DNA of 35,117 nt from Candidatus Micrarchaeota archaeon (GCA_015522865.1 WALN01000064.1:1-35117), one strand, 5' to 3'. Positions 22,728 to 35,117 are shown, counted from the stretch's first letter. A program made the numbers and translations. The notes: generated by a model not told the origin, from the sequence alone.

Positions 22728-22848
22728 GTTTTATTTATAGTCCCGTAGTCTAGTGGCCAAGGATGACAGGCTTTGGACGAAGCTCTCTTTTTCTTGTAAG
22801 AAAAAGAGACCTTCAGGAGAGAAAAAGAACGGGTTGTAGAAGACCTTC

Positions 22849-22912
22849 AGGAGAGAAAAAGAACAAAAATGAAAGAAGAACTTCTTGATGCAGCTTCTTT
22901 CTAAGAAGCTGC
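22849..22912 (+). repeat. 64-nt intra-intron direct repeat, copy 1
   Basis: aggagagaaaaagaacaaaaatgaaagaagaacttcttgatgcaGcttctttctaagaagCtgc is 62/64 identical to 23027-23090. The shorter repeat gaccttcaggagagaaaaagaac also occurs at 22808-22830 and 22842-22864. Confidence 0.9.
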
Positions 22913-22960
22913 TTTGGAACATCTTAGTACTTTCTTTCTTCTTAAGAAAGAAAGGACCAG
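22912..22960 (+). repeat. 49-nt module shared with the tRNA-His downstream repeats
   Basis: ctttggaacatcttagtactttctttcttcttaagaaagaaaggaccag matches 34938-34986 and 35038-35086 at 47/49 positions. Confidence 0.9.
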
Positions 22961-22990
22961 CACCTCTCTTAAAAAGAGAGCTGCACCAGA

Positions 22991-23025
22991 GAACTTCTTG
23001 ATGCAACTTCTTTCTAAGAAGTTGC
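22991..23025 (+). repeat. Partial (35-nt) third copy of the hairpin part of the 64-nt repeat
   Basis: gaacttcttgatgcaacttctttctaagaagttgc is identical to 23056-23090. Confidence 0.9.
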
Positions 23026-23026
23026 T

Positions 23027-23090
23027 AGGAGAGAAAAAGAACAAAAATGAAAGAAGAACTTCTTGATGCAACTTCTTTCTAAGAAGTTGC
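23027..23090 (+). repeat. 64-nt intra-intron direct repeat, copy 2
   Basis: See copy 1. It differs only at 23071 (A versus G22893) and 23087 (T versus C22909), which are the two partners of one stem base pair. Confidence 0.9.
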
Positions 23091-23170
23091 GGAGAAACCT
23101 GTAGACGCCGGTTCGAATCCGGTCGGGACTATTTAAAGAATAATGGTGAAATAATATAGGTGAGATTGAA

Positions 23171-30311: not shown

Positions 30312-31595
30312 TTAAATTTGCCTTTTTTGTGATTTTAAATACTCTATTATGCTGTCTAAGCTTAACATTTTTTCTTCGCCGGTTTTCATATTCTTCAATT
30401 TTAACTTGTTTTCTTCGATCTCTTTTTTTCCCATAATTGCTACGTACGGGATGTCTCTCTTTGATGCATAGTCTAAATTTTTTGAGATCCCCCTGTCCAT
30501 TAAATCGATGTCCGCATTTATTTCTTCACTTCTCAACTTTTCGGTTACTTCTAGTGCTGTGTTAAATGTTTTGATGGGTATTACGAAAACTTTTATTTTC
30601 GTTTTCTTTTTGTATTTTCCTCCAAGCGCTTCGCATATTCTTTCAGTTCCAAAACTTATTCCGACTGCGGGATATTCTCCCCTACCAATAAATTTCCCAA
30701 TCATTCGATTATATCTTCCGCCAGATGCTACTGCTGTTTTTACCTCAGAATTTTTCAAAAAAGTTTCAAAAATTGTCGAAGTGTAATAGCTCAGCCCTCT
30801 TGCAAGGGATAAGTCAATTTTTATATTTTTCAACGACAATATTTTTACAAAACTCAGCAAATTTTCCAGCTCCGTCACCCCCTCCTTTCCTTCGTCATTT
30901 AAATTCAACTTTTTCAGCTTCTGTAAAATTTCATCGTTTTCTCCGACAATTTCAAATAAAGAAAATAATTTTTCAATTACTTTTTTCGGAACTTCTTTAT
31001 TTTTCAGCTCGTCTTCAACCTCCTTTTTGCCGATTTTTTCGAGTTTGTCTATTGAGAGAATCACACTTTCTGCTTTCTCGTTTTCTACGCCCGCGTATTT
31101 TACAAGCCCATTGAGTAGTTTTCTGTTGTTAAGTTTTATTTCAAACTCCAAACCTATTCTCTTGAACACCTCGAACGTAAGCGCCAGTATCTCTGCTTCT
31201 GCTTTCATACTTTTTACTCCAATAATGTCTGCATCGCATTGCGTGAACTCTCTTAATCTGGTTGAGGAAACCGGTCCGTCTCTCCACGCTTCGCCAATCT
31301 GGTAACGCTTGAACGGCAATTTTAAATTCGGATTTTCTTTGATATAACGAGCAAGCGGAACAGTCAGGTCATATCTCAGGCCCAATTTTCTTCTTCCCTG
31401 GTCCTCTAATTTATATGTTTCTTTCAGAATTTCTTCGCCGCCCCCATATTTCGACGCAAGTGTTTCCCACTTTTCCAGAGCAGGCGTTTTAATTGGAACA
31501 TACCCGTATTTCTCAAAAATATTTTTTATAATTTTGATTAGCTCTTGCCTCTGAAATTCTTCCTCTGGCCCGTAGTCTCTGAATCCTTTCAACAT
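30312..31595 (-). CDS. hisS: Histidyl-tRNA synthetase
   Basis: MLKGFRDY.., LRYDLTVPLARY, FKRYQIGEAWRDG, GGRY and GISFG motifs. Start set at the first ATG; the track start at 31607 is a TTG. Confidence 0.9.
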   Translation of the reverse strand: MLKGFRDYGPEEEFQRQELIKIIKNIFEKYGYVPIKTPALEKWETLASKYGGGEEILKETYKLEDQGRRKLGLRYDLTVPLARYIKENPNLKLPFKRYQIGEAWRDGPVSSTRLREFTQCDADIIGVKSMKAEAEILALTFEVFKRIGLEFEIKLNNRKLLNGLVKYAGVENEKAESVILSIDKLEKIGKKEVEDELKNKEVPKKVIEKLFSLFEIVGENDEILQKLKKLNLNDEGKEGVTELENLLSFVKILSLKNIKIDLSLARGLSYYTSTIFETFLKNSEVKTAVASGGRYNRMIGKFIGRGEYPAVGISFGTERICEALGGKYKKKTKIKVFVIPIKTFNTALEVTEKLRSEEINADIDLMDRGISKNLDYASKRDIPYVAIMGKKEIEENKLKLKNMKTGEEKMLSLDSIIEYLKSQKRQI

Positions 31596-31712
31596 GTTAC
31601 CACACAAATTATGAATTAGTTATTTAAATAATTGATTAGGCAACTAATAATTTCCCTGTTTATATTTTGTGCAGCGCAGTTAATTATTTAACTAAAATTT
31701 AAGTAATGGAAT

Positions 31713-33185
31713 TTGGGGGATACTATCAAATATATTTATGTAGCAGGGCAGCGCAAAACGTTAATTGCCACTTTTCTGAAAAAGGGTACCTTTACGGCTT
31801 CGTATGCCTACTTCAACAACAACGTCGAACCAAATTTCATAATTTTTAGGCACAATTTAAATGCAGAGTACTGGGTGCCGGAATCTGAGGTGCTCAGGAT
31901 GAACAAATTCGGAGAAAAATACTTGGGCCGTCGGTTTACTGAGAGCATATTAAATAAAGTTAAGCTGAATGTTAATGCTGCATGGAAGATGGTGGAAAAA
32001 TTAAATAGGCTTGAATTTTCTGCGCTATCTAACGCAAAGCTTATTGAGTTATTTTCCCAAATAAATTCAATACTTTTGCAGCTGATGGGCGATTTATTTT
32101 TATCGCAGGATTTTTATACTAAAGCAGTGGAGGAGCGGCTCATCTCTTTGCTCTCGTCCAAATTCAAAGACAGGAAAAAAGTTGATTATTATCTAGGAAT
32201 TTTACTTAAAGATTATGATTTGGATGCAATCCAACGCGAAGAGATAGATTGGTATAATTATGTGCTGAACCACAAAAATATAAAACGTGAGGAACTGATG
32301 AGTTATGTTTTGCGCAATGGATGGATGATTTATAATGCATTTGATTATGAAACTGCGTACAATTTTATATTGGAGAGATATAGAAAGACTGAAAATATGG
32401 GCGAGAAAGAAATTCAAAAGAGAATTAAAAATATTCTGCTCAATAAACAAAAAGCCAGAGAAGAATTTAATGCTCAAAGCGAAAAACTTACCCCCAAAAT
32501 GCTTGAGTTAGCTACCATCTTGCGGGATTTAGCTAAGAACAGGCTCGAAGTGAAATTGGCTACGAATTCCTTAGAAGTCGCTCTAAACCTCAAATTATTG
32601 TATTTCCTTTCCAAAAAATTTAACTTAAATTTCTGTGATTTGTTGGATGGATATTTGCCTGGAGATATAAGGAAGTTGTTGGAAAGTGGCTTTCGTGTTT
32701 CTGGTGATAAAATTAAGAGACGGAAGGAGTTCGTCTCGTTTGTTCAAATTAACGGAAAATTTGATGTTGCGAGCGGTAATGACGCTATGAATAAAATTGA
32801 TAATTTATTAAGTAGTTCGAGACCAAAGAAAGAGCAGAAAGTGCTGAAAGGTAATGTTGCTTCTATTGGCAGTCCCTCAGTTGTAACTGCTACCGCAAGG
32901 ATAATACGTTTGGGAAATGATTCCGAGTTGAGAGAAGACATAAACAGATTTCAAAAAGGCGAAATAATCGTTACTATTATGACTCAGCCCAATATGGTCC
33001 CAATAATGAAAAAAGCTGCAGCGGTTATTACTGACGAAGGAGGCATATGCAGCCACGCAGCTATTATTTCCAGAGAATTTAACATCCCATGTATAGTAGG
33101 AACAAGGGCAGCAACAAAAATTATAAAAAATGGCGACAAAGTCACAATAGACACTTCAGAAGGAATTGTCAGAATTATAAAATAG
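31713..33185 (+). CDS. PEP-utilizer swivel (phosphohistidine) domain protein with an uncharacterised ~390-aa helical N-terminal region
   Basis: The C-terminal ~100 aa read ..GEIIVTIMTQPNMVPIMKKAAAVITDEGGICSHAAIISREFNIPCIVGT.., the PEP-utilizing enzyme mobile domain with the catalytic His. No ATP-grasp (PPDK_N) domain or PEP/pyruvate TIM barrel is visible. TTG start. Confidence 0.7.
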   Translation: MGDTIKYIYVAGQRKTLIATFLKKGTFTASYAYFNNNVEPNFIIFRHNLNAEYWVPESEVLRMNKFGEKYLGRRFTESILNKVKLNVNAAWKMVEKLNRLEFSALSNAKLIELFSQINSILLQLMGDLFLSQDFYTKAVEERLISLLSSKFKDRKKVDYYLGILLKDYDLDAIQREEIDWYNYVLNHKNIKREELMSYVLRNGWMIYNAFDYETAYNFILERYRKTENMGEKEIQKRIKNILLNKQKAREEFNAQSEKLTPKMLELATILRDLAKNRLEVKLATNSLEVALNLKLLYFLSKKFNLNFCDLLDGYLPGDIRKLLESGFRVSGDKIKRRKEFVSFVQINGKFDVASGNDAMNKIDNLLSSSRPKKEQKVLKGNVASIGSPSVVTATARIIRLGNDSELREDINRFQKGEIIVTIMTQPNMVPIMKKAAAVITDEGGICSHAAIISREFNIPCIVGTRAATKIIKNGDKVTIDTSEGIVRIIK

Positions 33186-33191
33186 TTTCAG

Positions 33192-34700
33192 TCACCTGCT
33201 TTTTATAATTCTTACAACGCCATTATTTGCATCCACCTCTACAAATTTTCCGTCTTTCAAAATTGATGTTGCTATTTTTGTTCCCATAACGCACGGTATG
33301 CCCAAAGCCTTTGAAATTAATGCGGCGTGGCAGGTAACCCCATTTAAATCAGTTACAATTGCTGACGCTTTCATCATAGCGGGCAATATATTTGGGTCTG
33401 TTTGGTAGGCTACAAGTATATCGCCTTTTTTCATTTTTTTCATTTCTTTAGGGTCTTCTATTATTTTCGCTACTCCCCTTACTTTGCCCGGATATGCACA
33501 CAGTCCACTTAAAAATTTCGTTTTTCTTTTTTTCTCTTTTTTTATGTTTATTTTCTCCATGAATTTTCTTGCTTTTTTTCCAGTCAGCCATTTTTCTCCC
33601 TTTTGGGTAAAATCTCCAACAGTGTATTTGAGCCTTTCATTAAGCTCTTTCCTTGAAAATTTTCTTTTGAGTATCGCATCCCTCATCTCGAATGGGCTGA
33701 TCACGCGCATCTGCTCCAAATTCAGCCCGGCTCTTTTTCCCATTTCTCTAAGAAGAGATTCTGTTGCATAATATCCATAGAACATTGCATCTTTTCTGAA
33801 AGCTTTTATTGAAATTATTTTTCTTGCCTGTTCAAAAAGCAACTGATGTTTCTTGTCTATGCCAATTGTTCTTGTGTAGTGTTCCTGCATTTTCTTAATT
33901 CTCAAAGGAGTCCGTTCCATTTTTTTGACCATTTTTTGTACGTCTATATCCTGAGAAATTAAATCTACCAGTCGCTCAATAATCATCTTTTTGTTCCAAG
34001 CAGGGCCTTTGTATTCATATCCTATCCAACCAAATTTTTCCACATGCTCTTCGATTTCCTTTCCGGCTATCCTGTTTATTCTTTTTTCAATCTCTTTTTT
34101 TGTCCTTTTGTCTCTAATTGTATTTTTGAGTTTGTTGGCAATCTTCAAAATATTTTGTTCTTCTTTTCTTTCAATACTTTCTTCTGTGGGCGTACTTAGT
34201 ATTGCGTATACTTCCTCTACTCCATATTTTAATCCCTTCCTTTTTATCTGCTGCGAAAGGTATTTTTTGAGATGAGTAGATAATAGATGATCCTTAATTT
34301 CTATAATGAACGGAACGATTCCCGGCAGTATTGCTTCCTGATTAGCTTTCCAGAACCTTTCATATAATTTTATGAGCTTTTCATCAGAGTATTGTGGCAT
34401 ATTCATTTTATAAATCGCTCTAGAAACCTTAAATAAATTTTTAGCATTTTTGAAATGTATTTTATGTAATTTATCGAACCATGCAAGATTATTTAACATT
34501 TTTCTAAAAGCATATTTTTCTTTGCTCTCGAATTCTTTTTTATCTAGAAAATAATTCGAGTTTCCCTTTTTTATTTCTATTATAAACTCTCTGAACAAAG
34601 GTATGCTTACTATGTTTAGCCTGCGGGTGAAAAGATACGCAGAATAGGCATGCATAAAAACTTCTCTTCTAACTTTTAATATCGCAATCCATTCTTTCAT
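33192..34700 (-). CDS. Paralogous PEP-utilizer swivel domain protein
   Basis: C-terminal ..GDILVAYQTDPNILPAMMKASAIVTDLNGVTCHAALISKALGIPCVMGT... The N-terminal region is collinear with 31713-33185 (for example YSDEKLIKLY versus LSNAKLIELF, and FGWIGYEY versus NGWMIYNAF). Confidence 0.7.
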   Translation of the reverse strand: MKEWIAILKVRREVFMHAYSAYLFTRRLNIVSIPLFREFIIEIKKGNSNYFLDKKEFESKEKYAFRKMLNNLAWFDKLHKIHFKNAKNLFKVSRAIYKMNMPQYSDEKLIKLYERFWKANQEAILPGIVPFIIEIKDHLLSTHLKKYLSQQIKRKGLKYGVEEVYAILSTPTEESIERKEEQNILKIANKLKNTIRDKRTKKEIEKRINRIAGKEIEEHVEKFGWIGYEYKGPAWNKKMIIERLVDLISQDIDVQKMVKKMERTPLRIKKMQEHYTRTIGIDKKHQLLFEQARKIISIKAFRKDAMFYGYYATESLLREMGKRAGLNLEQMRVISPFEMRDAILKRKFSRKELNERLKYTVGDFTQKGEKWLTGKKARKFMEKINIKKEKKRKTKFLSGLCAYPGKVRGVAKIIEDPKEMKKMKKGDILVAYQTDPNILPAMMKASAIVTDLNGVTCHAALISKALGIPCVMGTKIATSILKDGKFVEVDANNGVVRIIKSR

Positions 34701-34751
34701 ACGCTACACTAGGAGCTTCTCTTTAAATATTTTTTCTGAAATGGGCTGAAG

Positions 34752-34766
34752 TAATTTAAACTTTTA
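34752..34766 (+). promoter_or_regulatory. TATA-like element taatttaaactttta about 27 nt upstream of tRNA-His
   Basis: Position and composition only. Confidence 0.3.
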
Positions 34767-34783
34767 TCTCGCAATGATTATGT

Positions 34784-34906
34784 GGCGGCGATGGTGCAGT
34801 GGTTAACATCTCGGACTGTGGATCCGAGGACCCGAGAAGCCTTTCTTTCTGAAGAAAGAAATCCTTGGGAAAGAAAGACAAGGGAATTCGAGTCTCGGTC
34901 GCCGCC
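34784..34906 (+). tRNA. tRNA-His (anticodon GTG at 34818-34820) with encoded G-1 and a 50-nt intron in the T-arm (between positions 53 and 54); CCA not encoded
   Basis: Eight-bp acceptor including G-1:C73 (GGCGGCGA / TCGCCGCC), T8, A14, anticodon stem TCGGA/TCCGA, loop CTGTGGA. The T-stem CCGAG (34832-34836) is separated from T-loop TTCGAGT plus CTCGG (34887-34898) by 34837-34886. Confidence 0.75.
34837..34886 (+). other. Non-canonical tRNA-His intron (position 53/54)
   Basis: aagcctttctttctgaagaaagaaatccttgggaaagaaagacaagggaa contains a CTTTCTTTC/GAAAGAAAG-type hairpin (34842-34861) of the same family as in the 49-nt module. Confidence 0.7.
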
Positions 34907-34937
34907 CTTAGCTCTCATTCTATTCTTAGCATTCTTT

Positions 34938-34986
34938 CTTTGGAACAACTTAGTACTTTCTTTCTTTTTAAGAAAGAAAGGACCAG
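34938..34986 (+). repeat. 49-nt shared module, His repeat unit 1
   Basis: ctttggaacaacttagtactttctttctttttaagaaagaaaggaccag is 47/49 identical to 22912-22960. Contains an 11-bp hairpin at 34956-34980. Confidence 0.9.
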
Positions 34987-35037
34987 TTCGAGTCTCGGTC
35001 GCCGCCCTTAGCTCTCATTCTATTCTTAGCATTCTTT

Positions 35038-35086
35038 CTTTGGAACAACTTAGTACTTTCTTTCTTTTTAAGAAAGAAAGGACCAG
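35038..35086 (+). repeat. 49-nt shared module, His repeat unit 2
   Basis: Identical to 34938-34986. Confidence 0.9.
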
Positions 35087-35117
35087 TTCGAGTCTCGGTC
35101 GCCGCCCTTAGCTCTCA

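Follow-up and report, generated by a model that had tools for sequence, protein, structure and literature searches.

We identified a tRNA-His(GUG) gene at positions 34784-34906 of the window (the whole 35,117-nucleotide stretch of DNA analysed, contig C64 of assembly G000) in which a 50-nucleotide (nt) insert, 34837-34886, separates tRNA positions 53 and 54. The gene is likely functional, with the insert removed by proteins as an intron at a relaxed bulge-helix-bulge (BHB) motif. The first base pair, G-1:C73, is encoded, G-1 being 34784 and followed by the acceptor strand GCGGCGA, and CCA is not encoded after C73. The anticodon arm reads UCGGA-CUGUGGA-UCCGA, with GUG at 34818-34820. The insert fits no tRNA element and consists of an AAGC linker, a T-rich/A-rich hairpin (CTTTCTTTCT GA AGAAAGAAA) and a 3' end reading ...GACAAGGGAA. 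About 15-33 nt upstream of G-1 sits an A/T-rich box, a possible promoter that is placed as expected for an archaeal tRNA gene. Coordinates of these and related features are collected in Table 1.

Table 1. Features of the tRNA-His locus and of related interrupted tRNA genes (coordinates refer to the window unless a contig or locus is named; a slash within a sequence marks a splice site).
Feature	Coordinates	Strand	Details and basis
hisS (histidyl-tRNA synthetase)	30312-31607	-	Pfam tRNA-synt_His, 8.8e-52, and HGTP anticodon-binding domain
A/T-rich box (ATTTAAACTTTTATC), candidate archaeal TATA-type promoter	34751-34770	+	Sequence reading only
Exon 1	34784-34836	+	G-1, acceptor 5' strand, D-arm, anticodon arm, 4-nt variable region and T-stem 5' strand CCGAG ending at 34836; Rfam, census, orthologue alignment
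Putative relaxed BHB, 5' half	34829-34837	+	h strand 34829-34830; H strand 34831-34834 (CCCG)
Putative 5' bulge and splice site	34835-34837; cut 34836/34837	+	A, G / A; canonical register
53/54 intron, 50 nt	34837-34886	+	Excision restores the conserved T-arm; ends match same-genome tRNA-Pro 53/54 introns
Putative relaxed BHB, 3' half	34881-34889	+	H strand 34881-34884 (AGGG); h strand 34888-34889
Putative 3' bulge and splice site	34885-34887; cut 34886/34887	+	A, A / U54; canonical register
Exon 2	34887-34906	+	T-loop TTCGAGT, T-stem 3' strand CTCGG, acceptor 3' strand TCGCCGC, C73
Perfect 100-nt tandem repeat	34887-35117	+	2.3 copies, running off the contig end
Hairpin module M1	34932-34986; 35032-35086	+	Dispersed repeat family in or beside tRNA genes
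Extra exon-2 copies	34987-35006; 35087-35106	+	
tRNA-Pro(UGG)	C26:305-184	-	49-nt insert; Rfam 36.9 bits, alignment like that of tRNA-His; terminator right after gene
tRNA-Pro(CGG)	C31:262-9	-	145-nt insert; also D-loop insert; isotype in 81/81 solutions
tRNA-Pro(GGG)	C38:2368-2024	-	226-nt insert; also D-loop insert; isotype in 81/81 solutions
tRNA-His(GUG) of G407 (another family)	L125 ~1334-1520 = G407:C157	+	Encoded G-1; 76-nt 37/38 intron; 44-nt 53/54 intron
tRNA-Gly(GCC) of G043	L108 1610-1366 = G043:C12	-	117-nt insert at 53/54, 53-nt insert at 59/60; by-eye reading

The assembly comprises 652 kb in 65 contigs (38% G+C) and is 79.5% complete. It is marked as that of a DPANN archaeon by its tRNAs with 37/38 introns, by RtcB and by the closest relatives of its histidyl-tRNA synthetase, which are 46-51% identical and come from bins labelled uncultured archaeon, Woesearchaeota and Micrarchaeota. 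A scan of metagenomes for a 21-nt word from exon 1 returned 0 matches. The synthetase gene, hisS, had been reported in the initial annotation about 3 kb upstream of the tRNA; we place it at about 3.2 kb upstream on the opposite strand, a proximity that looks coincidental. Two convergent paralogues of ~490-500 amino acids (aa) occupy 31713-33185 (+) and 33192-34700 (-) of the window; their Pfam match is restricted to a C-terminal PEP-utilising mobile domain, and the N-terminal ~400 aa are without a family hit.

The identity of the gene, including its encoded G-1, is confirmed by a full-length match of the Rfam tRNA model to 34785-34906 (35.4 bits against a gathering score of 29; E 5.7e-4), in which the surplus bases are put in the T-loop, and by alignment with orthologues. 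ARAGORN at default settings reported no tRNA anywhere in the window and so missed the gene. We located the insert with a rule-based census of the whole genome in which a T-stem, a TTCRAnn loop and an acceptor of 7 bp were obligatory and a split was allowed anywhere from 53/54 to 60/61; the only split with which tRNA-His was recovered immediately follows the T-stem strand, at 53/54. ARAGORN found uninterrupted tRNA-His(GUG) genes in seven order-level relatives, and in the alignment all seven encode G-1 and C73, so that an encoded G-1 is the norm in the order and nothing special in the window gene. Five of the seven have the T-arm GACCCGAG-TTCRAnT-CTCGG, and excision of 34837-34886, which joins ...GACCCGAG to TTCGAGTCTCGG, yields GACCCGAG-TTCGAGT-CTCGG, exactly as in these five. 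Removal of this one segment restores a canonical cloverleaf with the conserved nucleotides, and no other placement of the insert restores the T-arm conserved among orthologues. Position 53/54, as first proposed for a 50-nt intron in the T-arm, therefore holds independently of any splicing motif. Brute-force excision scored by ARAGORN was discarded as too permissive, because long variable arms absorb leftover insert and hundreds of 'valid' tRNAs result; such a scan is useful only with restricted product length and comparison with orthologues.

The assembly contains no uninterrupted tRNA-His gene, and the sole other copy has the same insert. Contig C1 begins inside this second copy, whose exons are identical to those of the window copy and whose intron carries CG in place of AA at 34880-34881, a 2-nt difference adjacent to the central helix of the splice motif.

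In the standard archaeal BHB motif, each bulge has 3 nt and is cut after its second base, and 4 bp separate one bulge from the other. A degenerate BHB had been drawn by eye for this gene, with C34831:G34884, C34832:G34883 and C34833:G34882 as its pairs; these are correct, fall in the canonical register and form the central helix (H) of a relaxed motif. The fourth H position is a G34834.A34881 mismatch in the window copy and G.G in the C1 copy, so that neither matches the strict motif, and the first intron-intron (h') pair is lost in both. Because the fourth H and first h' pairs are missing, the 5' site lies in a 5x2 internal loop, with no clean 3-nt bulge. The 3' site matches the relaxed motif (hBH, or BHL), with a clean bulge (A34885, A34886, U34887) between H (3 bp) and an outer helix h of 2 bp (A34830:U34888 and G34829:C34889).

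The unconstrained minimum free energy (MFE) fold of the precursor (-47.2 kcal/mol) contains no BHB and pairs CGAG with UUCG around a 3x3 loop, and conformers with the T-stem or the BHB register were computed at -45.5 and -45.2 kcal/mol, respectively. The BHB conformer thus lies 2 kcal/mol above the MFE, and the motif is predicted to be accessible but not to be the ground state. Since the MFE fold lacks it, the case for the motif is built on its canonical register and on comparison. When five distinct junctions were compared, 86% of cells were paired in the canonical register, against 71% and 57% for registers slid by -1 and -2 and 34% and 17% for +1 and +2. A covariation test on the same five junctions gave no signal beyond conservation, with 302 of 500 shuffles equally good; support for the proposed register comes from conservation and geometry, not from compensatory change. 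All 53/54 junctions examined have the same A-A-U 3' bulge and the same CCC:GGG pairs.

The census and a junction search revealed three further 53/54 inserts in G000, all in tRNA-Pro genes (Table 1). The exon flanks GACCCGAG/ and /TTCRAnTCTCGG are common to tRNA-His and the three tRNA-Pro genes, and all four introns begin with AAG or AAA and a T-rich hairpin arm and end with NGGGAA. The central helix in tRNA-Pro has 4 bp (CCCG:UGGG or CCCG:CGGG). The base facing G51 is C in tRNA-Pro(CGG) and tRNA-Pro(GGG), giving four Watson-Crick pairs with a larger 5' loop; it is U in tRNA-Pro(UGG), where a G:U pair forms and the constrained fold is a full hBHBh' that matches the strict motif; and it is A or G, unpaired, in the two tRNA-His copies. 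The tRNA-His intron agrees with that of tRNA-Pro(UGG) over its first 14 nt, one inserted C apart, and has the same last 5 nt. These shared parts comprise the linker, a hairpin arm of low complexity and bases that pairing constrains, and common descent of the tRNA-His and tRNA-Pro introns is plausible. The 226-nt intron of tRNA-Pro(GGG) holds four to five tandem copies of a ~33-nt module.

To look beyond G000, we used a 3'-junction pattern, GGGAATTCRANTCYCGG (GGGAA/TTCRAnTCYCGG), that cannot occur in an uninterrupted tRNA. In a phylum-wide sample of 401 genomes from 156 genera, it was detected in 32 genomes and 19 genera, and the reversed control gave 0 matches in the same sample. Most of the 14 pattern loci examined are tRNA-Pro genes; one is tRNA-Glu and one is the tRNA-His of G407, which has the same T-loop (TTCGAGT) and 3' T-stem strand (CTCGG) as the window gene and a strict motif at 53/54 (H CCCG:CGGG, h' AACCC:GGGUU, with A-G-A and A-A-U as the bulges). 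In the order-level relative G043, tRNA-Gly(GCC) gives a perfect cloverleaf only as a three-exon gene with a 6-nt micro-exon, TTCAAA; its 53/54 insert ends UGGGAA/UUC. The 59/60 junction of the same gene gave no obvious helix. The window intron is a member of a tRNA-Pro-centred 53/54 class that is widespread in this archaeal group, and the initial view that a T-arm position is uncommon does not apply to the lineage, in whose related genomes 53/54 introns are widespread.

With H reduced to three pairs in both tRNA-His copies, compared with four in the tRNA-Pro genes and in the G407 tRNA-His, and with the 3' exon tandemly duplicated, the locus could also be read as a decaying, non-functional copy with a degenerated BHB and repeat-scrambled surroundings, the working tRNA-His lying in the unassembled ~20% of a genome that is 79.5% complete. 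We consider this improbable. Both copies have the same flawless exons and differ only in the intron and the downstream sequence, and the spliced product matches the orthologues. Each relative's locus examined with ARAGORN has one tRNA-His. Moreover, an A opposite G51 recurs in the 53/54 intron of another genome (L134), and relaxed motifs are cleaved by epsilon2 and (alpha-beta)2 endonucleases (PMC3239211).

Downstream of the functional gene that we favour, the window continues as a tandem repeat whose 100-nt unit consists of exon 2 (20 nt), 25 nt and the 55-nt hairpin module M1. On C1, exon 2 is followed by an 88-nt diverged unit, exon 2 again (a spacing of 108 nt between exon-2 copies) and then unique DNA with oligo-T runs; the duplication of the 3' exon on C1 lies at C1:99-226. 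At least one 3'-exon duplication is real, because C1 carries a second, diverged version of the unit; the number of copies in the window may reflect an assembler loop. Judged from the extra exon-2 copies, the tRNA-His locus is in flux. The possibility that repeat-rich reads, mis-joined during metagenome assembly, created the insert or the repeat is suggested by the 100% identity between the repeat copies, by the array running off the contig end and by the many module-rich regions at contig ends. It is extremely unlikely as an account of the intron: exon 1, insert and exon 2 occur together on two contigs with different variants, and the same architecture recurs in three tRNA-Pro genes on other contigs and in other genomes, so that the doubt touches the repeat copy number only.

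The duplication also raises the question of which exon 2 is spliced. Removing 34837-34986 or 34837-35086 gives an identical mature tRNA, and M1 normally lies at the 3' end of G000 introns. On C1, terminator-like oligo-T runs (T5, then T8) begin within about 20 nt after the last exon-2 copy, and the first copy runs straight into the repeat unit. The true 3' exon might then be a downstream copy, with an intron of 150, 250 or more nt (158 nt in C1), or several 3' exons might be used. The bases preceding the downstream copies (..GGACCAG/ in the window, ..GGGCCAGAA/ in C1), however, cannot form the CCC:GGG helix with exon 1, and the window version lacks the A-A seen before the 3' splice site in every 53/54 junction examined; tRNA-Pro(UGG), in turn, shows the ~50-nt version complete, with a terminator immediately after the gene. 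A downstream acceptor is therefore very improbable, and we take the first exon-2 copy as the acceptor because the others cannot form this helix.

M1 belongs to a repeat family of G000. A query containing it gave 19 matches in G000; the order's other 67 genomes contained no full-length M1, their partial matches were mostly to the low-complexity hairpin, and two of these partial matches led to interrupted tRNAs in G034 and G043. The end of M1 (..AGGACCAG) resembles the tRNA's own ..AGGACCCGAG, a likeness by which illegitimate recombination may have been directed. Reverse-oriented arrays of M1 follow closely downstream of tRNA-Pro(GGG) (C38:1840-1978), and tRNA-Asn is directly preceded by module arrays (C23:7026-7283). 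As modules also occur outside tRNA genes, the repeats are associated with tRNA genes and not confined to introns. Elsewhere in the window (22750-23131), tRNA-Gln(UUG) carries a ~310-320-nt modular insert after the anticodon loop with an M1 copy at 22912-22960, and its sister gene tRNA-Gln(CUG) (C14:~6320-5930, -) contains module pairs of ~101 nt that are duplicated in tandem.

Interrupted genes make up more than half of the detectable tRNA genes of G000, and many of their introns are long and share recently duplicated modules. At least nine complete tRNA genes carry 45-450-nt T-loop inserts with 59/60-type geometry (Leu UAA, Tyr GUA, Phe GAA, Arg GCG, Ser GGA twice, Leu GAG, Thr UGU and Lys UUU; on C3, C34, C35 (two), C38 (two), C45, C47 and C56), and more are cut by contig ends (C8, C24, C51 and C49). 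Their junctions are conserved (TTCRAA/A(C/G)xCCCC... and ...GGRCCAG + 8 nt/T60), and base pairing between the 8-nt linker and the T-loop (UUCA:UGAA), like that in the 59/60 hBH motif of ARMAN-2, is seen in several. ARAGORN called 88-nt 'tRNA-Phe(aaa)' and 'tRNA-Leu(taa)' genes inside module arrays (C35:24787-24874, C51:7302-7389 and C22:19670-19757), which are almost certainly false positives from the hairpin repeats.

For the splicing machinery, RtcB is present (PF01139, 505 bits; C16:6580-9297, -) in one 952-aa open frame, in which an interruption of about 1.4 kb, probably an intein, divides the Pfam match into two parts (positions 1-50 and 46-426). The splicing endonuclease EndA was not found in the 652-kb, 79.5%-complete assembly with Pfam PF01974, TIGR00324, tblastn or an unfiltered custom profile. 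This absence is uninformative because the assembly is about 80% complete, and the gene, which most tRNA genes of G000 would require, presumably lies in the missing ~20% of the genome. Each of the 20 order-level relatives searched has one EndA gene. The four inspected encode proteins of 387-388 aa counted from the conserved N-terminus, and one matches the ARMAN-2 epsilon2 enzyme (PDB 4FZ2) over its full length (E 2e-125). The ARMAN-2 epsilon2 enzyme cuts relaxed T-loop motifs in vitro (PMC3239211, PMC3488258). The homologues indicate that the lineage has the broad-specificity epsilon2 enzyme needed by the relaxed motif, and for G000 itself we infer the same.

Transcription, cleavage and ligation of the tRNA-His precursor, and the type of endonuclease, can be proposed from these sequence features. 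The precursor would be transcribed from the upstream A/T box. The T-stem strand C48-C50 would pair with GGG near the 3' end of the intron to form H, and A47 and G46 would pair with U55 and C56 to form h. The 3' splice site would thereby come to lie in a bulge of 3 nt (A, A / U54) and the 5' site in a bulge or loop (A52, G53 / A), and both would be cut by a broad-specificity splicing endonuclease. RtcB would join the exons, after which the T-arm would refold; the encoded G-1 would be kept, as in relatives, and CCA added post-transcriptionally. Two other fates of the insert were rejected on general grounds: retention in the mature tRNA, where it would sit between G53:C61 and the T54-A58 stack, and self-splicing, for which it is too short and unstructured to be a group I or II intron.

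tRNA-His probably acquired the intron because its T-arm sequence is shared with tRNA-Pro. A broader and rather doubtful reading, to which we give some chance, is that the locus is a snapshot of the arrival of a tRNA intron as hairpin repeats spread in and around tRNA genes. If this were so, inserted module copies (for example M1, ending ..CCAG) would persist only where the flanks form a splice motif, the permitted sites in G000 being 37/38, 53/54 and 59/60. Recent recombination with a tRNA-Pro gene of the same T-arm would have brought the 53/54 intron into tRNA-His, the duplicated 3' exon and module would be the DNA footprint of that recombination or of an insertion, and the tRNA-His variants differing at the bases facing G51 would still be under selection for splice-site quality. 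How archaeal tRNA introns are gained is still a question in the field (for example, bioRxiv 10.64898/2026.10.13.758758), and loci such as this one could be used to test recombination-based spread. Their wider value lies in the modular intron family, the sharing between tRNA-His and tRNA-Pro, the variant copies and the duplicated exon.

With the window gene, tRNA-His joins the genes known to carry a 53/54 intron. We found no tRNA-His with such an intron in print, and both the position and a DPANN precedent have already been published. Incomplete tRNA sets in new DPANN genomes have been read as a sign of disrupted genes not yet identified (Kaneta et al. 2018, PMC5829648), and the failure of ARAGORN here illustrates that standard finders miss essential DPANN tRNA genes.

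Population or locus heterogeneity at one tRNA gene, with a duplicated tRNA fragment beside an intact gene, is known from Caldiarchaeum subterraneum, where mobile-element integration is involved (Sugahara et al. 2012, PMC3293823). In that case the duplicated fragment comes from the 5' part of the tRNA and is separated by a 1.8-kb recombinase-encoding element, whereas in G000 the repeated piece is the 3' exon, only 80-88 nt of non-coding sequence intervene, and we saw no recombinase. In Thermoproteales, similar introns have spread among different tRNAs (Fujishima 2010, Mol Biol Evol 27:2233; PMC4033280). G000 may offer a comparable case, in that tRNA-His and tRNA-Pro share intron ends and a hairpin module and other modules occur across many tRNAs. 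G000 differs from the transposed introns as described there in belonging to a different phylum, in its long, modular introns with tandemly duplicated modules, in the presence of modules outside tRNA genes and in the duplication of a 3' exon together with a module.

The closest parallels come from ARMAN-2, whose pre-tRNA-Pro(GGG) has introns at 53/54 and 59/60 (Fujishima et al. 2011, PMC3239211, Fig. 1C), an arrangement mirrored by the two inserts of the G043 tRNA-Gly. Like that gene, the window gene has an intron at 53/54 in a DPANN archaeon, of a BHB type that uses the T-stem strand; G000's own tRNA-Pro genes carry 53/54 introns, and the three-unit epsilon2 EndA of ARMAN-2 has full-length homologues in the order. 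The window gene differs from the published description in its host (tRNA-His), in a relaxed 3-bp H compared with a strict motif, in being without a second, T-loop intron and in having an intron that contains a hairpin of a genome-wide repeat family. ARMAN-2 epsilon2 also cuts the relaxed hBH intron at 59/60 of pre-tRNA-Cys in vitro (PMC3239211, Fig. 4). That intron is 13 nt long, whereas the window intron has 50 nt and lies at 53/54. In both, a relaxed T-arm motif has one clean bulge and the T-arm must refold after splicing (PMC3239211; PMC5829648, Fig. 6), and the 59/60 position itself has its counterparts in the nine or more T-loop inserts of G000.
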